Origin: Candidatus Magasanikbacteria bacterium RIFCSPHIGHO2_01_FULL_41_23
GTDB lineage: Bacteria; Patescibacteriota; Patescibacteriia; Magasanikbacterales; UBA922
Length of the DNA stretch: 64,000 bases
Reading direction: 5' to 3'
NCBI GenBank assembly: GCA_001782805.1
Contig: MFPT01000019.1
Location: forward strand, 1,801 to 65,800
In this document: in pieces, positions 4,714 through 51,799 of the stretch
Layout: the number at the start of each line of letters is the position of its first letter
Position numbering within the stretch: position 1 is the stretch's first letter
Translations under genes and position numbers: made by a program
Notes under the pieces: generated by a model
Told to the model about the DNA's origin: nothing
What the model saw: the letters and a program-made list of their open reading frames with translations, nothing else
Database searches by the model: none

Positions 4714-4830
4714 TAAGCAAACTTCGCGAGATCTTTTTCTCGACCACTCGACCCTTCGACAAGCTCAGGGTAAACAGGCTCGGGCATCGAGAAAAAAATC
4801 ATCGCTCCAGTTTGCTTCAAAGATTAATTG
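4714..4830. repeat. Intergenic copy of GC-rich short repeat (core 4752-4775 CCCTTCGACAAGCTCAGGGTAAAC) flanked by imperfect ~30-bp inverted repeats
   Basis: The core matches copies at 8757-8782, 35222-35244, 18423-18447 (reverse complement) and the variant at 34203-34243. Flanking arms AAGCAAACT...TCTTTTTCTCGA / TCGAGAAAAAAA...AGTTTGCTT. Confidence 0.8.
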
Positions 4831-4856
4831 GATGTTGGACTGTTGTATTGGGGGGA

Positions 4857-5010
4857 ATTTCAGTAGTAGATAATTTTGTTTTCAGTAATGTGCATGAGCT
4901 TTCTTACCACTTACTTGGTTAGAGTAGATGAGATGTCAATAAGGATAGAGACTAGGAGAGTATGAGAATAGCGAGTTTTACTGAAAAGAAAATTATCTAC
5001 TACTGAAATT
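4857..5010. repeat. ~150-bp palindromic element (33-bp inverted-repeat arms AATTTCAGTAGTAGATAATTTTGTTTTCAGTAA / TTACTGAAAAGAAAATTATCTACTACTGAAATT), homologous to the element at 29871-30020
   Basis: Arms are reverse complements with 1 mismatch. Internal right-end motif GCGAGTTTTACTGAAAA is shared with the second copy. Confidence 0.85.
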
Positions 5011-8241: not shown

Positions 8242-11133
8242 ATGAATAAATATAATCCCCAAGAAATTGAATTAAAATGGCAAAAATTTTGGGAAGAAAA
8301 TAAAACGTTTGCGGTTACTGAAGATTCGACCAAAGAAAAATTTTACGGCCTGATTGAGTTTCCGTATCCGAGTGGCGCGGGTTTGCATGTGGGGCATCCG
8401 CGGTCGTACACGGCCATGGACGTGATTACGCGGCAAAAACGCATGGAAGGCAAAAATGTTTTGTTCCCGATTGGGTTTGATTCATTTGGTTTGCCGACGG
8501 AAAATTTTGCCATTAAAACCGGTCGGCCGCCTGCGGAAATTACGGCTGAAAATATTACCACGTTTACGCGTCAGCTCAAGTCGCTGGGTTTTGGATTTGA
8601 CTGGAATCGCGCGGTGACCACGAGCGAGCCGGAATATTACAAATGGACGCAGTGGATTTTTTTGCAATTGTATAAACATGGTTTGGCGTACAAAGCGAAC
8701 CAGCCAATCAATTGGTGTCCGAAAGATAAAATTGGTTTGGCGAATGAAGAAGTAGTGACCCATTCGACAAGCTCAGGGCAAGTCAGTTGTTGCGAACGGT
8801 GCGGCAGCACAGTAGAAAAACGGAACAAAGAACAATGGATGCTGGCGATTACCAAATACGCGGACAAATTGTTGGAAGGCCTGAATGAAGTGGATTATAT
8901 TTCGCGCGCCAAAGTGCAACAAGAAAATTGGATTGGAAAAAGTGAGGGCGCGGAAATTAATTTTGCCTTGAATGTTCCGAGACAAGATTTAGGGAAACAT
9001 AGTGTAACGGTTTTTACCACGCGACCCGATACTATTTTTGGCGCGTCGTTTTTGGCAATTTCAGCCGAGCTGGCGCAAAAATGGATAGATGTAGGCTGGC
9101 AGGCGAGTGAGGAGGTAAAAAAATACATTGTGGAAACTTTGCAGGGTCGGACGACCGCGGTGGCGCGCGAAGATATTGAGAAAACCGGTGTTGACTCGGG
9201 AATTATCGCAATCAATCCGGTCAATAATGAATCAATTCCTGTTTGGATTGTGAATTATGTGTTGGGTGATGTGGGCACTGGTGCAATTATGGCTGTGCCG
9301 GCGCACGATGAACGAGACTTTGAGTTTGCACAGAAATATAATTTGCCAACAAAAGAAGTGGTAATCAAACAATTAGGCGAGAGAGTGGATGGTAGTGAAG
9401 TTAGAAATACTGCGCGGGGGATTTGTGTTCGAGATGGGAAATTATTAATAACCCGCAATAAGAAAATGGGTGAATATCTTTTGGTAGGTGGAGGAATTGA
9501 TAATAAAGAAAGTCCAACCGGTGCATTATTGAGGGAAATAAAAGAAGAAACTGGTTATTGTAATATAAAAATTTCTTCATATCTTGGCACTGTTGAACAT
9601 AATTATTTTCATACCCAACATAAAAAAAATTTACATGCGTTGGTGGCGGGCTTCGTATTTGAATTAGAAAATGAAGAAACAGTACCCCGCGTTGAAAATG
9701 AAATTCAAAAAGCTAATATTCTGTGGTTGCCGGTTGCCGAAGCGATTGAAAAATTTGAAAATAGTCCGTCATTTTGTCGGGAAGTTGAATTTATTGAACG
9801 CTATTTGCAAAAAAAAGGCCTGCCGTTTACTGAAAATGGTGTGGCGTATAATTCTGATTTCTTAAATGAACTGCCGACTCCCGAAGCCAAAGAAAAAATG
9901 ATTCAATGGCTTGAAGAAAAAAGAGTCGGCAAACGTAAAAAAAATTACAAACTCCGCGACTGGGTTTTTTCGCGCCAGCGATATTGGGGCGAACCGATTC
10001 CATTGGTTTTTTGTGAGAATTGTAAAGGTTGGATCCCGCTTCCTGAAGATCAGCTTCCTTTAAAGCTACCACACGTTGAAAAATATTTGCCGACGGACAC
10101 GGGCGAATCACCGCTCGCGCCAATGACGGATTGGGTAAATACGACTTGTCCGCAGTGTGGCGGTCCAGCGCGGCGGGAAACTGATACAATGCCGAATTGG
10201 GCTGGATCAAGTTGGTATTGGTTACGCTATTGTGATCCGCATAATGTTGAGCAATTGGCGTCAAAAGAAAAGTTAAATTATTGGCAACCAGTGGATTGGT
10301 ACAACGGCGGCATGGAGCACACGGTTTTGCATTTGTTGTATTCGCGTTTTTGGAATCAATTTTTGTACGACATTGGCGTGGTGCCCACGCGCGAGCCGTA
10401 CAAAAAACGGACGAGTCACGGTATGATTTTGGCGAGTGATGGTCAAAAAATGAGTAAAAGTTTGGGCAATGTGGTGAATCCAGATGAAATGGTCGAGCAG
10501 TTCGGTGCCGACGCCCTGCGCGTATACATTTTATTTATGGGGCCGTTTGACCAGGCCGTGGCGTGGGATACAAATGGACTTGTTGGTGTGCGGAGATTTT
10601 TGGAAAGAGTGTGGAATTTGCAGGAAAAAATTTACGATAACATCCCAGCAATTGTCGGGCAAATAACAGATAACAAAATTCAGACTGTTTTGCATCAAAC
10701 CATTAAGAAGATTACTGAGGATATTGCCGCGATGCGATTCAATACTGCAATTGCGAAATTGATGGAGTTGAGTAATGAAATGGGTACGCGGGAAAAAATT
10801 GCGCGCGAAGATTATCATATATTTATAAAATTACTCGCTCCATTCGCGCCGCATATTACCGAGGAATTGTGGAATCTATTTGGCACCGGCGATTCAGTCG
10901 CATATGCGCCGTGGCCACAATATGATTCTGAATTAATCATAGAAGCCGAAATAATCATTGTAGTACAAGTCAACGGTAAAGTCCGCGATCAATTGACTGT
11001 CTCGCCGGAAATTAGTGAAGAAGAAATAAAACAAATGGCGTTGTCGTCCGAGAAAGTGATGAAGTGGTTAGAAGGGAAAGAGCCGAAGAAGGTGATTTAT
11101 GTTAAGGGAAAGTTGGTGAGTGTGGTGGTATAA
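8242..11133 (+). CDS. leuS: Leucyl-tRNA synthetase with embedded Nudix hydrolase domain and a short in-frame repeat insertion
   Basis: HVGHPRSY (HIGH), Zn motif CCERCGS, editing-domain motifs TTRPDTIFGA and AHDERDFEFAQKY, KMSKS. A perfect Nudix box GGGIDNKESPTGALLREIKEETGY lies at 9487-9558, inside a ~150-aa insert. The THSTSSGQVS insert is encoded by the repeat core at 8757-8782. Confidence 0.9.
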   Translation: MNKYNPQEIELKWQKFWEENKTFAVTEDSTKEKFYGLIEFPYPSGAGLHVGHPRSYTAMDVITRQKRMEGKNVLFPIGFDSFGLPTENFAIKTGRPPAEITAENITTFTRQLKSLGFGFDWNRAVTTSEPEYYKWTQWIFLQLYKHGLAYKANQPINWCPKDKIGLANEEVVTHSTSSGQVSCCERCGSTVEKRNKEQWMLAITKYADKLLEGLNEVDYISRAKVQQENWIGKSEGAEINFALNVPRQDLGKHSVTVFTTRPDTIFGASFLAISAELAQKWIDVGWQASEEVKKYIVETLQGRTTAVAREDIEKTGVDSGIIAINPVNNESIPVWIVNYVLGDVGTGAIMAVPAHDERDFEFAQKYNLPTKEVVIKQLGERVDGSEVRNTARGICVRDGKLLITRNKKMGEYLLVGGGIDNKESPTGALLREIKEETGYCNIKISSYLGTVEHNYFHTQHKKNLHALVAGFVFELENEETVPRVENEIQKANILWLPVAEAIEKFENSPSFCREVEFIERYLQKKGLPFTENGVAYNSDFLNELPTPEAKEKMIQWLEEKRVGKRKKNYKLRDWVFSRQRYWGEPIPLVFCENCKGWIPLPEDQLPLKLPHVEKYLPTDTGESPLAPMTDWVNTTCPQCGGPARRETDTMPNWAGSSWYWLRYCDPHNVEQLASKEKLNYWQPVDWYNGGMEHTVLHLLYSRFWNQFLYDIGVVPTREPYKKRTSHGMILASDGQKMSKSLGNVVNPDEMVEQFGADALRVYILFMGPFDQAVAWDTNGLVGVRRFLERVWNLQEKIYDNIPAIVGQITDNKIQTVLHQTIKKITEDIAAMRFNTAIAKLMELSNEMGTREKIAREDYHIFIKLLAPFAPHITEELWNLFGTGDSVAYAPWPQYDSELIIEAEIIIVVQVNGKVRDQLTVSPEISEEEIKQMALSSEKVMKWLEGKEPKKVIYVKGKLVSVVV

Positions 11134-11389
11134 AAAGTTATTTATTTTATTAAGAAGTATTTAAAAAATTAGTTGGAGAGGGTACTATTTTGGATTTTAG
11201 AGATTAACTTCTGTCGTGTTTGTTATTGGTTTTTTATTATCCACACTCTCACTTTGGTTCGTGAAGAAAAAATGAATAAAAAAGCGATTGACGTCGGAAT
11301 AGTTTTGCGCTAAAATAAAAATAGCTAAAGATTCTACTGACTAGAAAAGATGAAATGGAGTTCATTATTATTTTTTTGTTATTTGTTAT

Positions 11390-11890
11390 ATGTTTCAAGA
11401 AATAGAAAGATTTATAAATATAGTTGGCATACCATCATTATTGCTGGGTTTTTTGTACATCGGCAAGAGATTACAATTGTTGGATGATATTAATAACACT
11501 GTCAAAAGCCTAAAGCATAATATAAAGGTCATTTGCGACCATTTGATTAGCAAGTTTGATGGTTTTGATCATACGTTGCTCGTTAACTACAGCCCACTTA
11601 AGCTTAAGCCAGAGGCGGTCAAACTTTTGGAAATTATTGGGTTTATTGAAATGTTTAAACAACATAAACAAGACTTTTTTGATTTAATAAATAACGAGCA
11701 ACCAAAAACCAAGTTTGACGTTGAATTGCAGAGTATTAAAGCAGTCCTAATATTATTTGAGAAGGATTATTTTACTGAGGTTAAAAATTACTTGTACAAC
11801 AATCCTAATGTTGAGTACAAAAAATTTGCGCAAGTCTTGGGTATTTATGTGCGGGACAAGTATTTTAATGAACATAAGATGATTTTATGA
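11390..11890 (+). CDS. Hypothetical protein (AT-rich, no recognisable domain)
   Basis: 166-aa ORF only. Lower GC than its neighbours. Confidence 0.35.
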   Translation: MFQEIERFINIVGIPSLLLGFLYIGKRLQLLDDINNTVKSLKHNIKVICDHLISKFDGFDHTLLVNYSPLKLKPEAVKLLEIIGFIEMFKQHKQDFFDLINNEQPKTKFDVELQSIKAVLILFEKDYFTEVKNYLYNNPNVEYKKFAQVLGIYVRDKYFNEHKMIL

Positions 11891-14517: not shown

Positions 14518-15428
14518 ATTGTATGAAAAAAATTGTATTTATTGTAATTTTAGGGATCGTGGTTTTAATTTCAAGTTATTTCGCTTGGCTTTATTTTTCC
14601 AATCCAAGCACAAGCCCGTTGAATCCCACGTTAAAAGTTAATTTTTTGGATGTGGGACAGGGTGATGCCACACTGATTATTTTTCCCGATGGCCAAGAAA
14701 TGCTTGTGGACTGTGGTCGCGACGCAATTATTTTGGCTGCGCTCGCGCGCGTTCGCCATTGGCAGGATCGAACATTGGATTATTTGGTAGTCACGCATCC
14801 GGATGCGGATCATTATGGCGGATGTATTGATGTGTTAAAACAATATACGGTAAAACATATTTATTTTAATGGTTTTGCCAAAGAAAATAGCCAACTTTTG
14901 CAAACATTTCACCAAACTGTTCTCGATGAAGAGAATATTGGTGCGGATTTTATTATTGTTTCCAGCTCCAAAGAATTATTTATTGCCAGCACGAGTATAC
15001 GATTTTTATATCCTGATCATTCCATTGTTCAAAATCCACGTGTGCCGGGAGAATCAAGTATTGAAAGCAATAATACCTCGATCGTCATGAAAATTTCTTA
15101 TGGCAAACTCAGTGTTCTTCTGACCGGTGACATGGAAATGCCGTTGGAAAATTATTTGATTAAAAAATATGGATCAATTTTAAATGTTGAAGTTTTAAAA
15201 ATCGGACATCATGGCAGTAAATCATCGTCCGGTGAAGAATTTTTAGGCCGCGTTATGCCCCAATACTGCGTTATTTCATCCGGCCAAAATAATTCTTATG
15301 GTCATCCGGCATTACGAGTTCTCAAACGTTTGGCACGAAGTGGATGCCAAATTTTGCGAACCGATTCATTAGGTGATATACTGGCTATAATTACATTGGA
15401 AAAAATCACCATCCATGCGCAAAAATAA
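14511..15428 (+). CDS. ComEC-type metallo-beta-lactamase domain protein with own N-terminal TM anchor
   Basis: VNFLDVGQGDATLIIFPDGQEMLVDCG, HPDADHYGG, LKIGHHGSKSSS. Separate ORF in a different frame, with a 7-nt overlap with the upstream comEC part. Confidence 0.75.
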   Translation: MVNCMKKIVFIVILGIVVLISSYFAWLYFSNPSTSPLNPTLKVNFLDVGQGDATLIIFPDGQEMLVDCGRDAIILAALARVRHWQDRTLDYLVVTHPDADHYGGCIDVLKQYTVKHIYFNGFAKENSQLLQTFHQTVLDEENIGADFIIVSSSKELFIASTSIRFLYPDHSIVQNPRVPGESSIESNNTSIVMKISYGKLSVLLTGDMEMPLENYLIKKYGSILNVEVLKIGHHGSKSSSGEEFLGRVMPQYCVISSGQNNSYGHPALRVLKRLARSGCQILRTDSLGDILAIITLEKITIHAQK

Positions 15429-16854
15429 TCTACTGTGGATTTTAGTCATTGGATTTATTTTTATCCCCCTCAACTTCGTTCAGGGCGCTTTTACTTTTGT
15501 GGTAAATCAAGGAATCCGTTTGTCCAATCCCAAAGCAGTTGAAGGGGAAACAGTCAAAATCTATACCGTCGTTGCCAATAATGATTTTACTACTCTTTCC
15601 GGTGAAATCACTTTTTATAACAATAATGTGGCCATTGCCAAAGTGCCTTTGGCAAAATTAGCGTTTGAAGATGCTCGACAAATCGCGGCGGAATTTGTTT
15701 TGCCGGCCGGTGAATTAGCCTTGACCGCTGAATTGACCAGTGTTACAGCAGTTAAGAAAAACGGTGAAACAGTTACGATTCCGGACAATGAAGTTAAAAG
15801 CGGATCTGCGCCAACGGTATTTACCATTGATGGTGATAATGATCGTGACCATTTTGGGGATAGTGTTGATCCTGACGATGATAATGATGGTGTTCCTGAT
15901 ACCAAAGAGTTGGAGGCGGGAACTGATCCTAAAAAAAGTGATACTGATGCCGATGGTTTGACTGATAAAATTGAATTGGAAAAAAAGACCGATCCATTGA
16001 AAGCCGATTCGGATAATGATGGCGTGTCAGATTCCGCTGATATTTTTCCAATGAATAAATCTGAAGTCAAAGACAGTGATGGCGATAGTGTTGGCGATAA
16101 TGCTGATACTGACGATGACAACGATGATCTTTTGGACGCTGATGAAATTGCTTTTGGCAGTGATCCTTTTAAAAAAGATACAGACGGTGATGGCGTCAAT
16201 GATTTTGAAGAAAAACGTTTAGGCGGAAATCCCAAATTGGCTGACTCTGACCATGATGGTTTGACTGATGCCGAAGAAGTTAAACGTGGCACTAATTTGG
16301 CCAGTGTTGATACTGATGCTGATGGTTTGTCGGATAAAACGGAAATTGAAGGAAAAACCGATCCCAAAAATCCGGATTCTGACAGTGATGGACTCAGTGA
16401 CAGTGACGAAATTAAAGTCGGAACTGATCCATTAAAAAAAGATACGGACAATGATGGTATTGGAGACAAAGAAGATGTCTTTCCGCTTGATCCGAAAGAA
16501 AATATTGATACCGATGATGATACTATGGGAAATAATACTGATACTGACGATGATAATGATAAAATTATTGACAGTGACGAAATTAAAGTCGGAACTGATC
16601 CATTAAAAAAAGATACGGACAATGATGGCTTAACCGACTATGAAGAAAAAGTCAAAGGAACTGATGCTAAAACCGCTGATACTGATCAGGATGGAAAAAA
16701 TGATTCTGAAGATCGGACGCCATTATCCGCGAGTCGTTTTTCCAATGTACCGACGAATGCGTTATTATATGGCGCGCTCGCGATTTCCGGTTTATGTTTT
16801 GTGGCGGCGAGCGCCGCCTATTGGCGTCGTCGAAAATTAAGCGCCAGAAATTAA
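15415..16854 (+). CDS. Secreted Ca-binding protein with thrombospondin type-3-like repeats and C-terminal TM/basic anchor
   Basis: Signal peptide. At least 12 DxDxDGxxD-type repeats. C-terminal hydrophobic helix followed by RRRKLSARN. Internal 59-bp exact direct repeat (16399-16457 and 16571-16629). Confidence 0.65.
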   Translation: MRKNNLLWILVIGFIFIPLNFVQGAFTFVVNQGIRLSNPKAVEGETVKIYTVVANNDFTTLSGEITFYNNNVAIAKVPLAKLAFEDARQIAAEFVLPAGELALTAELTSVTAVKKNGETVTIPDNEVKSGSAPTVFTIDGDNDRDHFGDSVDPDDDNDGVPDTKELEAGTDPKKSDTDADGLTDKIELEKKTDPLKADSDNDGVSDSADIFPMNKSEVKDSDGDSVGDNADTDDDNDDLLDADEIAFGSDPFKKDTDGDGVNDFEEKRLGGNPKLADSDHDGLTDAEEVKRGTNLASVDTDADGLSDKTEIEGKTDPKNPDSDSDGLSDSDEIKVGTDPLKKDTDNDGIGDKEDVFPLDPKENIDTDDDTMGNNTDTDDDNDKIIDSDEIKVGTDPLKKDTDNDGLTDYEEKVKGTDAKTADTDQDGKNDSEDRTPLSASRFSNVPTNALLYGALAISGLCFVAASAAYWRRRKLSARN

Positions 16855-18403: not shown

Positions 18404-18874
18404 ATGAATATGAATAAAAAAGGACTTGCCCTGAGTTCGTCGAAGGGATTTACGCTCATTGAACTGTTGGTGGTCATTGCCATTATCGCCTTGCTTTCCA
18501 CTTTGGCGGTAATCGCTTTGGGATCAGCGCGCAAAAAAGCCAATGATGCTAAACGTTTGTCTGATATGACTCAGATTCGTTTTGCTTTGGAAAGTTATTT
18601 TACCAAACGCAATACATATCCAACTACTTTGCCGGCCGGTGTTGTTTTGGGAGTGGGAAACGCGACTTGTCTCAATACCACAGGTTTTGCTGTCGCTGGT
18701 TGTGCCGAACCGCTTATGGCCATTATTCCGCGTGATCCGGGCGCAGGCACTTATGTTTACTCTTCAAATAACGGGAAAACATATAAAATTTTGGCTTCAC
18801 TGGAAGCCGGCACTGATACGTTAAAACCGGGAGCAATTGCCGTTGATCCGTTTACCATTAAAAATGGACAATAA
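18404..18874 (+). CDS. Type IV pilin / pseudopilin (prepilin N-terminal cleavage/methylation motif)
   Basis: KGFTLIELLVVIAIIALL (G/FTLIE class III signal). The leader region is encoded by the reverse-complement repeat core at 18423-18447. Confidence 0.85.
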   Translation: MNMNKKGLALSSSKGFTLIELLVVIAIIALLSTLAVIALGSARKKANDAKRLSDMTQIRFALESYFTKRNTYPTTLPAGVVLGVGNATCLNTTGFAVAGCAEPLMAIIPRDPGAGTYVYSSNNGKTYKILASLEAGTDTLKPGAIAVDPFTIKNGQ

Positions 18875-25298: not shown

Positions 25299-25724
25299 AT
25301 GCCAAAATTGTTGCCCCGCCAATACGCCAAAATTCTCTACGCTGTGACGCACGAAGCCAAGGATGTTCCCAAGGCGGTTGGTATGTTCGCGAAATTTTTA
25401 GAGCGTCGGCGCGCGACCAAAAAATTGCCGGTTATCATTGCTGAATTTTTAAATTTGGTACAGGAGAAACAGGGGATACTGAATGTGAAAGTAACTACGG
25501 CGCGAGTATTGCCGGAAAATAAAATAATTGAATTGGTAAAAAAAGTTCTTGTTCCGAGCGGCTTGTCCCGAGTCCCGAGGGAAGTCGAGGGAGAAGTCGC
25601 GGTTGAAATAAATGTTGATGCTACGATTGTAGGCGGCATGATTATGGAAACCAGCACTCACCGCTGGGACGCCAGTGTCAAAAATCAATTAGTACAATTA
25701 AATAATCAATTAACCCGAAAATAA
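25299..25724 (+). CDS. atpH: F0F1 ATP synthase subunit delta
   Basis: OSCP-like. C-terminal motif [23 protein letters not shown]. Position in the operon. Confidence 0.75.
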
Positions 25725-36969: not shown

Positions 36970-39900
36970 ATGAATACATTAAACCAATCGCAAAAAGAGG
37001 CCATTGAATACATTTCCAACCCTCTCCTCATCGTCGCCGGCGCGGGCACGGGAAAAACAACGGTGATCACGGAAAAAATCGCACATCTTATTTCTTTCGG
37101 CTTGGCAAAACCCGAGGAAATTTTGGCGCTGACGTTTACGGATAAAGCCGCGAACGAATTACTGGAACGCGTGGATGCGCGTTTGGAATTGGGCTATGTG
37201 GATCTGCAAGTTTCCACATTTCATAAATTTTGCGAACGACTACTCCAAGAATACGCGCTGGACATTGGATTGCCACGCCAATTTAAATTAATTACGGAAA
37301 CTGATGCCTGGCTTTTATTGCGTGATAAAATATATGAACTTGGTTTGGGTTATTATCGTCCGCTTGGCAATCCGGTCAAATATATTTCTGATTTATTGCG
37401 TCATTTTTCCAAATGTAAAGATGAGTTAATTACTCCTGCGGATTATTTGGCGCACGCGGAAAGTGTGGCGCATGAAACAGGCAGTGAAACTGGAGATGAA
37501 AAATCGCGTTTGACTGAACTCGCGAACGCGTATCACGCGTATAATCAATTGATTTTACAAGCCAGTGGATTGGATTTTGGTGATTTGATTTTTTATAGCG
37601 TGCAATTATTGCGCACGCGTCCGGAAATTTTGCAGAAAGTTAATAAGCAATATAAATATATTTTGGTGGATGAATTTCAAGATGTGAATTGGGCGCAATA
37701 TCAATTGGTGAAAGAACTCGCACGCGGTGGCCAGCTAACAGTGGTTGGTGACGACGATCAATCAATTTACGCGTTTCGCGGCGCCAGTGTTTCCAATATC
37801 TTGCGTTTTAAAGATGATTATCCCACGGCCAAAAGCATTGTGTTGAATGCCAATTATCGCTCGCGTCTGGAAATTTTGGATGTCGCGTATAGGTTAATTC
37901 AAAATAATAATCCGGATCGGTTGGAAGTAAAATTAGGTTTGGATAAAAAATTAATCGCGTCCGCGGAGTTTGGTGTTTTGCAAAAAAATCAAACAGTTGT
38001 AACTTATTTGAAAGCGGAGACAATAGACGCGGAAGTGCGTGGCGTAATTCAAGAAATTATCAGCTTAAAACAAAATAATCCGGACACGGTTTGGGATGAT
38101 TTCGCGATTTTGGCGCGCGCGAATAATCATCTGGATCCGTTTATTCGCGGACTGGAAGTGGCGGGAATTTCGTATGAATTTTTATCCGCGGCCGGGCTAT
38201 ATCGTCAACCGATTGTGTTGGACGCGTTTAGTTTTTTTAAAATTGTGCATCAAACGCAAGAAAATTCCGCGTTATTTAGATTGTTGAATTTACCATGTTT
38301 GAATTTTGATCCGCATGACACGCAAAAATTACTGGCCGTGGCCAAGAAAAAAAGTTTGTCGTATTTTGAAGCTTTGGCTCTGGCGCCGCAATGGGGATTG
38401 ACTTCTGATGGAATAAAGATTTGCGCAAAATTGCATGGATTATTATCTGCGGCCGTTGGTAAAAGCAATACGGATAAACCATCAAATCTCCTTTACTCTT
38501 TTTTGGAAGAATCAGGTTATTTGCAATTTTTAGCACATAAAGAAAATGAGGGTGATCGGACGATTATTCGCCAAATTTATCAGCTTCAACAATTTTTGGA
38601 AACAGTGACGCGATTTGAAGAAACTGTTCCCGATCCGCACGTTGCTCATTTTGTGGAATATCTGAATACGATCTTGGAATCAGGCGATGAAGGAGGATTG
38701 TATCAACCGACTGATACGCCGGATTCGGTGAATGTTTTGAGCGCGCATGGCGCCAAAGGTTTGGAATTTAAATATGTGTTTGTGGTCAACATGGTGGAAG
38801 AACGATTTCCGACGCGTCGTCGTGGAACTGGTTTGGAAATTCCCGAAGAACTTATTCATGAACATGTGCCCGAAGGAGATTATCATCTGGAAGAAGAAAG
38901 ACGTTTGTTTTATGTAGCGACTACGCGCGCCAAAGAGCGTTTATATTTTTCCAGCGCGGAAAATTATGGTGGCGTGCGCGCTAAAAAAGTGTCGCGATTT
39001 TTGGTGGAAGCGGGCGTTGTGGAAGAAACTCCTAAAAAAGAAAAACCTGTCGTGAGTTTGTCTCGCAGTGAGCTTGTCGAATTGTCGAGCCAATCAGAAC
39101 CGAAAAAATCAGTTACTGATTTTGCCCCGCCAATTATGAGGCCGGCAAAAGAAAATCCCGTAGTTTACGAATTACCCAAAGCCTTTTCTTTTTCCCAAAT
39201 AAAATCATACCAAACCTGTCCGTACCAATATAAGTTGGCGCATATTTTAAAATTACCCACGAAGAGCTCGTTTAATTTTAGTTTTGGCCAAAGTATGCAT
39301 GCGACTTTGCAAGATTTTTATACCAAAGTGCAGACGATGAATCGCGCTAAACAAGAATCTTTATTTTCCCTGCCATTGGTCTCGGCCGCAATCATGTCGG
39401 CTGACAGCGTAAAAGTACCAACACTCGCGGAATTATATAAAATGTATGACGCGCATTGGATTCCGGATTGGTATGAAAATAAAAAACAACGCGCGGAATA
39501 TTATGCCAAAGGAAAAGATATTTTGAAAAAGTTTTACGCGGCCGAAGATGGACGCTGGACAATTCCCGTATCCTTGGAAGGCTGGTTTAAAATTAAAGTG
39601 GGAAATTATTTGGTGCATGGTCGCATTGATCGCGTGGATCAAGCTTCCGATGGAACGCTCCATATTATTGATTACAAAACCGGCCAAGCAAAAGAAACAC
39701 TGACGACCGAAGACAAAGAACAATTATTGATTTACCAAATCGCGGCCGAAACTTTACCTGAATATCGCCAGATTGGTAAAACTGGACAGCTGACTTTTTA
39801 TTATTTAAATGATATTTTGAAAACCTCTTTTCTCGGTGATCCGGAAGATTTGGAAAAAATAAAAGGAAAAATAACTGCGACAATTGACCAAATTTATGCG

Positions 39901-50533: not shown

Positions 50534-51799
50534 TTGTATATGTTAGATATTAAATTCATCCGCGACAACAAAGATTTATTAAAACAGAATTGTAAAAACC
50601 GGAATGTCGAAGTTGATATTGACCGACTCATTGAGGTTGATGGACTTCGCCGTACAAAAATTGGCGAAGTTGAAGAATTGCGCGCGATGCGCAAGGCCGG
50701 ATCAAAAGCCAAACCGACATCGGAAGAAATTGAGCGTATGCGCGTGGTGGGGGAGGAGATTAAACAAAAGGAAACTGAACTCGCGGCGATTGAAATCGAA
50801 TACACAGAAATGATGATACGCGTGCCAAACATAACGCATCCCGAAACTCCGATTGGCGGGGAAGATAGTTACAGGGTGTTTGAAACCATCGGGGAGCCAA
50901 CGCAATTTGACTTTACCCCAAAAGATCATGAAGAATTATTGACCAACCTCAATTTAATTGATTTTGAGCGTGGCGCGAAAGTTGCCGGCGGTAAATTTTT
51001 CTTTTCCAAGGGTGATTTGGTTCGATTGAATCAAGCCTTAATTCATTATGGAATTGATGTGGTAACTGCGCATGGTTATGAATTAATAGAAACTCCTGAT
51101 CTGGCGCGTAACGAAATTCTGCAGGGGATTGGTTTCAACCCACGCGGTCTCGAATCGCAAATATATTCAATTGAAAACATGGATTTAAGTTTAATTGGCA
51201 CGGCCGAAATTACGGTTGGCGGATATCATAAAGATGAAATTTTGGATTTAACACCTGGGCCAAAAAAATATGTTGCGCTTTCGCATTGTTTCCGCACCGA
51301 AGCCGGCGCGTACGGTCGCGAAAGTAAAGGATTATATCGCGTGCATCAATTTACAAAACTGGAAATGTTTGTGTATTGTAAACCCGAAGACAGCGAAGCA
51401 ATGCACCAAGAATTATTAGCGATTGAAAAAGAAATTTGCGACGGACTTGGTTTGTCCTATCGTGTGATTGATATCGCGAGCGGAGATTTGGGCGGACCGG
51501 CGTATCGTAAGTTTGATATTGAAGCTTGGATGACAATGAATGGTTCGGCAAGCTCACCACAAGGAGGCTTCGGTGAAATTACGAGCACGAGTAATTGTAC
51601 GGATTATCAGGCACGACGTTTGAACATTCGTTATCGGACTGAAAACGGTGAAACAAATTTTGTGCATACTCTAAACGGTACGGCGATTGTGACGAGCCGA
51701 TTTCCCATCGCGATTGTAGAACAATATCAACAAGAGAATGGCACGATCAAAATGCCTGAAGTTTTGCAAAAATATTTAGGAAAAAAAATAATCGGTTAG
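50534..51799 (+). CDS. serS: Seryl-tRNA synthetase
   Basis: N-terminal coiled-coil arm. Class II motifs (FRTEAGAYGRESKGLYRVHQFTKLE, GSASSPQGGFGEI). Confidence 0.9.
   Translation: MYMLDIKFIRDNKDLLKQNCKNRNVEVDIDRLIEVDGLRRTKIGEVEELRAMRKAGSKAKPTSEEIERMRVVGEEIKQKETELAAIEIEYTEMMIRVPNITHPETPIGGEDSYRVFETIGEPTQFDFTPKDHEELLTNLNLIDFERGAKVAGGKFFFSKGDLVRLNQALIHYGIDVVTAHGYELIETPDLARNEILQGIGFNPRGLESQIYSIENMDLSLIGTAEITVGGYHKDEILDLTPGPKKYVALSHCFRTEAGAYGRESKGLYRVHQFTKLEMFVYCKPEDSEAMHQELLAIEKEICDGLGLSYRVIDIASGDLGGPAYRKFDIEAWMTMNGSASSPQGGFGEITSTSNCTDYQARRLNIRYRTENGETNFVHTLNGTAIVTSRFPIAIVEQYQQENGTIKMPEVLQKYLGKKIIG

Follow-up and report, generated by a model that had tools for sequence, protein, structure and literature searches.

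A 24-nucleotide interspersed repeat with in-frame copies in leuS, typA and other genes of a Candidatus Magasanikbacteria contig

The 64,000-nucleotide (nt) stretch of contig MFPT01000019.1 analysed here, referred to below as the window, belongs to an ultra-small groundwater bacterium, a member of Candidatus Magasanikbacteria within the Patescibacteria, or candidate phyla radiation (CPR), and has a G+C content of about 41%. It carries a family of very short sequences that constitute a repeat family rather than ordinary conserved sequence, and copies of it lie in frame inside essential protein-coding genes, including that of leucyl-tRNA synthetase (LeuS). The explanation considered probable is that a very small repeat proliferates in such genomes, and that its coding copies are the survivors that landed in permissive loops and are translated there. 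A wider version of this explanation is offered only tentatively, and we think it somewhat doubtful: that a structure-less 24-nt sequence is a mobile unit within and between many phyla and phages, that it spreads by an undescribed templated insertion, and that, in gene-dense Patescibacteria, it is the main source of new loops inserted into proteins that are otherwise highly conserved.

The 26-mer CCCATTCGACAAGCTCAGGGCAAGTC is located in frame within the 963-residue LeuS open reading frame (ORF; 8242-11133) at 8759-8784, that is, 2 nt away from the interval 8757-8782 given in a preliminary description of this DNA. With up to three mismatches allowed, its sole match in the window is itself, so the part shared by the copies must be shorter than 26 nt. 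The 20-nt core TTCGACAAGCTCAGGGCAAG, searched with the same tolerance, gives five matches against 0.01 expected from shuffled sequences: at 4755 (forward, in the infB-trx intergenic region), 8763 (forward, LeuS), 18425 (reverse, prepilin), 35223 (forward, TypA) and 39062 (reverse, UvrD/PD-(D/E)XK helicase). A 24-nt consensus with up to six mismatches likewise yields five copies against 0.01 expected. The previously proposed family of at least five copies is therefore real, comprising these five core matches and a TypA variant, and the helicase copy is an addition to the earlier list. Five of the six firm copies are genic, the sixth is intergenic and none is paired. The earlier label of GC-rich is appropriate relative to the window, since 15 of the 26 positions of CCCATTCGACAAGCTCAGGGCAAGTC are G or C (58% versus about 41%), and overstated in absolute terms, the enrichment being moderate. 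The firm copies, followed by two weaker candidates, are the following.

4745-4786, forward strand: intergenic long (nested) form between infB and trx, composed of half A, a unit at 4752-4775 and half B.
8758-8787, forward strand: LeuS segment THSTSSGQVS (codons 173-182) with the short-form unit at 8760-8783, replacing the two-codon turn (D/N-G) of the ZN-1 hairpin.
18422-18447, reverse orientation: short-form unit in the prepilin leader, MNMNKK-GLALSSSK-G/FTLIELL, a clean gain of eight codons.
34204-34248, forward strand: TypA site 1, long form PSTHSIGAQGSGREP, 45 nt in place of the KD turn between strands E54-59 and E75-81.
35221-35244, forward strand: TypA site 2, short form LSTSSGQV, 24 nt in place of the DG turn between strands E396-399 and E406-420.
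39046-39091, reverse orientation: long-form copy SLSRSELVELS in the linker between the UvrD_C and PD-(D/E)XK domains of a 1023-residue helicase-nuclease.
51541-51564, forward strand: probable diverged short-form variant GSASSPQG in seryl-tRNA synthetase (SerRS), read in the frame that the PSxSSGQ copies use; a weaker candidate.
25553-25591, reverse strand: possible long-form variant in atpH (ATP synthase delta subunit); a weak candidate, based on a likeness by eye to the TypA site 1 form.

The SerRS candidate has eight mismatches to the consensus and a profile E value of 0.0015, this copy being itself part of the profile; solved SerRS structures show a gap of seven residues at its position. 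The atpH candidate does not reach significance in the profile scan. A scan for GC islands as a finder of further inserts returned 115 islands without discrimination and was abandoned.

In LeuS, the in-frame peptide THSTSSGQVS occupies codons 173-182, as originally described. Its assignment to the entry of the editing domain has to be corrected: the Pfam editing domain spans residues 228-397, and the insert sits at the turn, or tip, of the ZN-1 zinc hairpin (residues 173-182). Among the 120 closest LeuS clusters at 90% identity, the segment is found exclusively in the query's own cluster, and every other cluster with a recovered site has ANEEV(V)-xG-C.ERCG; because they all show this short turn, the segment is lineage-specific. 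At the DNA level, the empty site of 33 relatives reads GTN-GAY/AAY-GGN-TGY; the window carries 30 nt where its relatives have 6. The alignment to the E. coli enzyme leaves a gap of eight residues exactly at the insert, between ANEQVID and GCCWRC, in agreement with the earlier statement that E. coli LeuS has no residues there.

The exact insert-bearing LeuS protein is encoded on 15 contigs, and one of them, from a European Nucleotide Archive (ENA) assembly whose upstream sequence differs, matches the window at 100% identity over 4965 nt. This independent assembly indicates that the LeuS insert is not an assembly artefact. More generally, an origin of the whole family in assembly, binning or sequencing errors might be suspected because most carriers of the core are metagenome-assembled genomes (MAGs), and because the Joint Genome Institute (JGI) contigs identical to the window may share the same reads. 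We give this explanation practically no chance: besides the ENA allele, cultured Sphingomonadales have copies in finished genomes and plasmids, isolates of Chryseobacterium and Epilithonimonas have them too, and no coding copy breaks the frame or uses the one with a stop.

Two further features of this locus may be recorded. Identity with the ENA assembly (locus L003) starts at about 8169, just upstream of leuS, where RhuM and PIF1-helicase genes stand in place of the gdh, sigma factor and inositol phosphatase genes of the window; this point marks a strain-level rearrangement or an insertion breakpoint. LeuS also contains a complete NUDIX domain after the editing domain (residues 389-504; window 9406-9753). 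In precomputed Pfam lists, the LeuS proteins of related Magasanikbacteria have alpha/beta-hydrolase domains, HAD domains or no such addition.

TypA provides the clearest record of gain. In its closest relative (P0122, 90% identity, locus L004), site 1 has no insert and the alignment shows a clean 39-nt gap, the KD dipeptide being replaced by the final codons of the insert, so the TypA variant listed in the preliminary description is genuine. Across 120 TypA clusters, internal insertions of at least three residues occur almost only at two loops, FY/../TKINIV (site 1) and QVIIK-EI/../K-EPFE (site 2), which are filled in 12 and about 8 clusters, respectively. The inserted peptides include PSADSGQVP, PSASSGRPV, PSTGSGRES and PSTSSGQVI. 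In the five carriers compared at the codon level, the same DNA element is used in the same frame (PSxSSGQ), as in CCT TCG ACA AGC TCA GGA CAA GTG (L154) and CCT TCG GCA GAC TCA GGG CAA GTT (L155). Carriers are scattered over the tree, mostly next to empty neighbours (the nearest ones share 76-93% identity in core columns, and most of them 84-93%); under Fitch parsimony, at least 11 independent changes are needed to explain the 12 site 1 carriers and at least 7 to explain the 8 site 2 carriers. Two filled/empty pairs with 80-83% nucleotide identity show 24 nt in place of GACGGC and 39 nt in place of CGCGGG. In the AlphaFold2 (AF2) model, both inserts form coil between beta strands, and the predicted local distance difference test (pLDDT) score is below 50 at residues 63-72 of site 1. 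The gains in TypA are recent and recurrent. At site 2 of the empty relative (L004, TypA at 10001-11863), a different and shorter insert of five residues, PNGAS (CCC AAC GGG GCA AGC), has the same GGGCAAGC ending as the element and could be a copy that is read in another frame and has lost internal sequence.

These data bear on two alternative explanations. In the first, the segments would be ancient protein parts, or a peptide module selected convergently as a flexible Ser/Thr loop, instead of a DNA repeat. PSxSSGQ does recur in the loops of many proteins, as such a module would. The codons, on the other hand, are identical across unrelated genes and nearly all orthologues are devoid of the segment; furthermore, one copy is intergenic, those in reverse orientation encode unrelated peptides, and other reading frames are used elsewhere, e.g., LRQAQGK. 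The proposal is already contradicted by this evidence and we regard it as highly improbable. It had been foreseen that orthologues with the same peptides and unrelated codons would point to conserved sequence; what is found is the same DNA element in distant TypA carriers scattered on the tree, and segments of LeuS, TypA and the pilin that are absent from the closest orthologues.

In the second alternative, insertions would have been few, homologous recombination or gene conversion of gene segments would have carried the filled alleles from lineage to lineage, and the scatter of TypA carriers would reflect allele transfer. Such a transfer would account for the fact that the window and L154 share the position, orientation, frame and GGACAAGT variant at TypA site 2 with proteins only 74% identical, and ComEC and type IV pilus genes are present in the window. 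It would not account for carrier flanks that differ at many synonymous positions up to the junction, for site 1 inserts that differ among L155, L156, L157, L159 and the window, or for carriers that resemble their empty neighbours across the whole gene. Allele transfer is thus considered very unlikely, a little less so than the peptide module.

The pilin behaves analogously. Its nearest homologues (83-90% identity) are empty, with leaders reading MNKKG/FTLIELL or MNRKG/, and the gain of eight codons falls within the leader peptide that is cleaved off; a diverged version of this insert is present in two more distant clusters. A second, independent insertion into a pilin leader, in another reading frame, was noted in a MAG labelled Gammaproteobacteria (L124, 7934-7952), where a forward copy gives the type IV pilin leader MMKLLKI-LRQAQDKQ-NGFTLVELL.

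The boundaries of the element were defined from 126 aligned instances, obtained by a genome-wide pattern scan over many phyla. The conserved block extends from position -3 to +20, with sharp edges and random flanks. It consists of Y-C-C, followed by the searched core and then by R-C (consensus YCC-TTCGACAAGCTCAGG-RYAA-RC), and its 24 nt correspond to eight codons. The same length is evident from tandem arrays in two MAGs, one of Flavobacteriales and one of Anaerolineales (L060, L066), whose period is exactly 24 nt. The 24-mer has no terminal inverted repeats, and the folding energies of its two strands are -0.9 kcal/mol (z = +0.84) and -1.7 kcal/mol (z = +0.17); since shuffled sequence folds as well as either strand, the unit is not a palindrome. 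The long forms give z values of +0.03 and -0.55. Five of the six reading frames are open, giving PSTSSGQA, LRQAQGKL and PFDKLRAS on one strand and ACPELVEG and LALSLSK on the other, and one reverse frame contains TGA. All coding copies are in frame and none uses the stop-containing frame.

The long form, of about 45 nt (42-46 nt), is arranged as half A, full unit and half B, and looks like one unit nested inside another. The layout of the intergenic copy at 4745-4786 also occurs in L009 and L057, its carriers include an unrelated Pseudomonadota MAG, and the TypA site 1 and helicase copies look like the same nested form. The intergenic copy occupies the entire loop between inverted-repeat arms at 4730-4743 and 4787-4800, with a hairpin fold of z = -3.0. 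A place in the loop of a locus-specific hairpin was dropped as a general rule for the element, as stems of at least 6 bp surround only 4 of 154 instances (control, 0.6%), and it is kept for the intergenic copy alone.

The insertion junctions are variable. Net gains of +18, +21, +24, +33 and +39 nt are observed and the 5' edge varies as well; the two turn codons are usually lost at insertion, 6 nt of target being lost in the filled/empty pairs, and no target duplication is seen.

The element is not restricted to this lineage. The 19-mer TTCGACAAGCTCAGGRYAA, for which our own arithmetic gives a chance expectation of about 17 occurrences in 596 Gb (both strands), is present in at least 120 stretches of species-representative genomes. 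According to the record titles of the matches listed, the carriers comprise about 20 Patescibacteria, Sphingomonadales, including finished genomes, and the Chryseobacterium and Epilithonimonas isolates mentioned above. Further carriers among the matches listed are Nostoc, Leptolyngbyaceae, Acidobacteriota, Planctomycetota, Chloroflexota, Bacteroidota, Omnitrophota and others. The C at position -2, which lies outside the searched pattern, is conserved in 119 of the 126 instances; such conservation next to the pattern indicates that the cross-phylum matches are not due to chance. The core is also found in 29 IMG/VR viral contigs, and in AT-rich phages some copies are read in frame with an ORF, beginning at its predicted start codon. 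The view of the element as a feature of this type of genome must therefore be given up, its 19-24 nt core being present in many phyla and phages.

The context of the copies differs among groups. In finished Sphingobium and Novosphingobium replicons the core is present, and the Sphingomonadales copies form the outer arms of hairpins of about 100 nt; inverted pairs also occur in this order. Nostoc copies form the loop plus the 3' arm of a hairpin with an 11-bp stem. In other Patescibacteria, exact in-frame copies are found in genes for M17 aminopeptidase, beta-CASP RNase, GyrB, FolD, PfkB kinase, EF-P, NusA and PolX; these genic copies mostly use the PSTSSGQ frame, and other frames, such as LRQAQGK, also occur. 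The window contains five core copies in 64 kb versus none in 1.12 Mb around LeuS from 80 other Patescibacteria contigs. The core is likewise absent from 21.9 kb of the closest relative, and none of the 5,426 genomes of E. coli contains it. Its occurrence is very patchy, and this Magasanikbacteria lineage carries a burst of copies.

In unrelated genomes, some copies of the core adjoin the 3' end of RNA genes: of a tRNA gene in L006 (417-435, about 3 nt downstream) and of the transfer-messenger RNA (tmRNA) gene in L032 (2848-2866, about 20 nt). In L122 a copy follows a tRNA-like 3' end recognised by sequence, at a position where Rfam called no tRNA. The cases are too few for this adjacency to serve as an explanation, and it was set aside. 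Tn3-type inverted repeats, rRNA, RNase P RNA, hammerhead cores, FtsK-orienting polar sequences (KOPS) and Chi were also considered as possible counterparts of the core; none appeared to fit, and no such relationship is claimed.

The comparisons show a repeat that multiplies in some genomes by copy-and-paste insertion, at unrelated loci and in either orientation. In the explanation favoured here, insertion would be largely indiscriminate, and selection would retain those copies that preserve the frame, avoid the stop-containing frame and lie in permissive places; a genome that is about 90% coding is the setting assumed for this selection. Such places would be the tips of beta-hairpins (the LeuS ZN-1 hairpin and both TypA loops), an inter-domain linker (helicase), a cleaved leader (pilin) and the loop of an intergenic hairpin, and the retained genic copies would be transcribed and translated as passenger loops. 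The dominance of the Pro/Ser/Thr/Gly-rich frame PSTSSGQ fits such a filter. About 10% of lineages are occupied at each TypA loop, which is of the same order as would result from about 100 copies/Mb distributed over a few thousand permissive sites; this is a consistency estimate and not a measurement.

With regard to the mechanism, the imprecise junctions, the small target deletions and the lack of terminal repeats, hairpin and duplication favour the insertion of a short templated patch, in the course of repair or replication, over a classical transposase reaction. GAY is present at all three verified coding targets, which hints at microhomology with the internal GAC of the element.

A related explanation would dispense with the mobile element altogether: the segments would be filler copied at break repair from an abundant and conserved small RNA or DNA oligonucleotide, neither autonomous nor mobilised in trans, and identity across phyla would be conservation of the template. 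Sharp edges together with imprecise junctions and small target deletions would be expected from such filler, and so would the absence of terminal inverted repeats, target duplication and hairpin; the exact 24-nt-period arrays in unrelated phyla and a core that is identical in many phyla and phages are also in line with it. However, a universal template predicts a more even spread than the very patchy one seen among related genomes and the complete absence from the E. coli genomes. Moreover, no Rfam family covers the element or matches its surroundings in the window and 16 carrier loci, at either gathering or permissive thresholds. We consider this origin unlikely, while giving it more weight than allele transfer.

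Several observations weigh against the proliferating repeat. No transposase, reverse transcriptase or REP-associated tyrosine transposase (RAYT, of the IS200/IS605 type) is found among the genes called in the window. No filled/empty polymorphism was found within one species, and a metagenome scan for the LeuS junction returned no hits, including for the filled allele. The repeated loss of exactly the two turn codons in independent events is not predicted by random insertion plus selection, and may point to a targeted or homology-guided process. That the 24-mer is nearly identical across phyla does not sit easily with a selfish element passed on vertically, and would require frequent horizontal spread or a shared constraint. 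Finally, the translation of the inserts is deduced from frame and stop-codon statistics alone.

The preliminary description had compared the element with the Rickettsia palindromic elements (RPEs), which, as reported by Ogata and colleagues in 2000, are said to be palindromic, about 100-150 bp long and confined to Rickettsia. The likeness holds in that short hydrophilic peptides are added in frame to the products of housekeeping ORFs, tRNA synthetases among them, where the surface tolerates extra residues, and in that intergenic copies exist. In-frame, stop-free insertion into ORFs, which characterises RPEs, is observed in LeuS, TypA (two sites), the pilin and the helicase, and in GyrB, FolD, EF-P and NusA of other Patescibacteria. 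The likeness fails for structure, length and range: the element is not self-complementary, it measures 24 nt, or about 45 nt in the nested form, and many phyla carry it. Being neither palindromic nor 100-150 nt long, the unit is not an RPE.

Closer in size are the GTAG/CGTC-tagged repetitive extragenic palindromes (REPs) of about 24-28 nt, described from more than 80 species in 8 phyla (Di Nocera, De Gregorio, Rocco 2013; PMC3733652). REPs are imperfect palindromes, 20-40 nt long and tagged at the end with GTAG or CGTC, defined by a stem of 8-9 bp and a loop of 4-5 nt, and are predominantly extragenic, often lying in inverted pairs; those of the CGTC type have no known dedicated transposase, and RPE-4 and RPE-6 have been equated with them (PMC3733652). 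Some GTAG/CGTC REPs are intragenic, including in tRNA synthetase genes of Sphingomonadales, and single units give 8-aa peptides such as VAPAQAGA (PMC3733652). The earlier remark that nothing comparable is established is accordingly valid for Patescibacteria and for this sequence, and not for genic repeats that yield peptides of eight residues. The peptide strings of the element are absent from the supplement of PMC3733652. The present unit resembles intragenic REPs in size, in its occurrence in many phyla and in genic copies yielding 8-aa peptides; it differs in lacking a stem and a GTAG or CGTC tag at either consensus end, in its sequence, and in being predominantly intragenic and unpaired in the window.

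The small dispersed repeats SDR1-8 of Nostocaceae, attributed to Elhai et al. 2008, are reportedly 21-27 nt long, sharp-edged, recently mobile and confined to one cyanobacterial subgroup, several of them folding as hairpins. Some are also said to insert into the centres of palindromes and into copies of themselves, by a mechanism that is reportedly not known. The element shares with them a dispersed unit of 24 nt with sharp edges and random flanks, as well as a nested form and an intergenic copy that fills the centre of a palindrome, the latter being weak as a general rule. Unlike the SDRs, which are also described in PMC5861425, it is found in many phyla and is not restricted to Nostocaceae. 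Because the Nostoc core copies sit in a hairpin with an 11-bp stem, an overlap with one SDR family is possible. Compared by description, the SDR class would be the closest analogue in size and behaviour.

The resemblance to other small elements is more limited. Terminal inverted repeats and a target-site duplication, as in a MITE (a transposable element of the miniature inverted-repeat type), are missing, and 6 nt of target are lost instead. The DNA uptake sequences (DUS/USS) of Neisseria and Haemophilus are words of 9-12 nt that arise by substitution within existing sequence. The element resembles them as a short over-represented word placed both intergenically and in frame within genes; unlike them, it adds DNA, with net gains of 18-39 nt relative to orthologues.

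A literature search by DNA strings, peptide strings and concept retrieved no description of this sequence. Strings like FDKLRAN, LRQAQ, LSLSKG and PELVEG are, we assume, common in hypothetical proteins of environmental bacteria, and annotators have probably met the repeat before. What is new is therefore the sequence itself, with its unexplained identity across phyla, small interspersed repeats that enter genes in frame being already known; this identity could make the element more than a variant of such repeats.

If the proposed explanation is correct, the repeat would be a recurrent source of loop insertions for protein evolution in ultra-small, gene-dense bacteria, and most internal TypA inserts among the 120 lineages would be recognisable copies of it. 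It would also represent a mobile element of the smallest class, among the smallest spreading DNA elements known. The spread of 24 nt across phyla with no hairpin, inverted ends or target duplication would call for an insertion mechanism outside those described, which can now be sought by comparing carrier and non-carrier genomes. Translation of the passenger loops would be expected to give the peptides EEVVTHSTSSGQVSCCER and EILSTSSGQVIK. In practice, the recurrent strings PSTSSGQ, LRQAQGK, FDKLRAS, ALSLSKG and PELVEG will interfere with alignments, with the calling of orthologues and with filters for spurious ORFs when protein sets from metagenomes are analysed.

Other features of the window are listed for completeness. 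Across its 64 kb, no Rfam family attains the gathering score, which means that neither a tRNA nor an rRNA nor a riboswitch was detected. Upstream of the thioredoxin gene, and separate from the element, there is a 33-nt inverted repeat (4856-4888 and 4978-5010; 97% complementary, arms 89 nt apart) with weak microRNA-precursor-like Rfam hits on both strands. On the minus strand, at about 57977-59159, a Y-family DNA polymerase (IMS) gene adjoins a gene for an S24 peptidase (LexA/UmuD-like). An ORF of 539 residues with no Pfam hit (27271-28890) is located between atpA and atpG, within the ATP synthase operon. Lastly, a perfect 60-nt direct repeat (16398-16457 and 16569-16628) lies inside an ORF of 479 residues (15415-16854), also with no Pfam hit.

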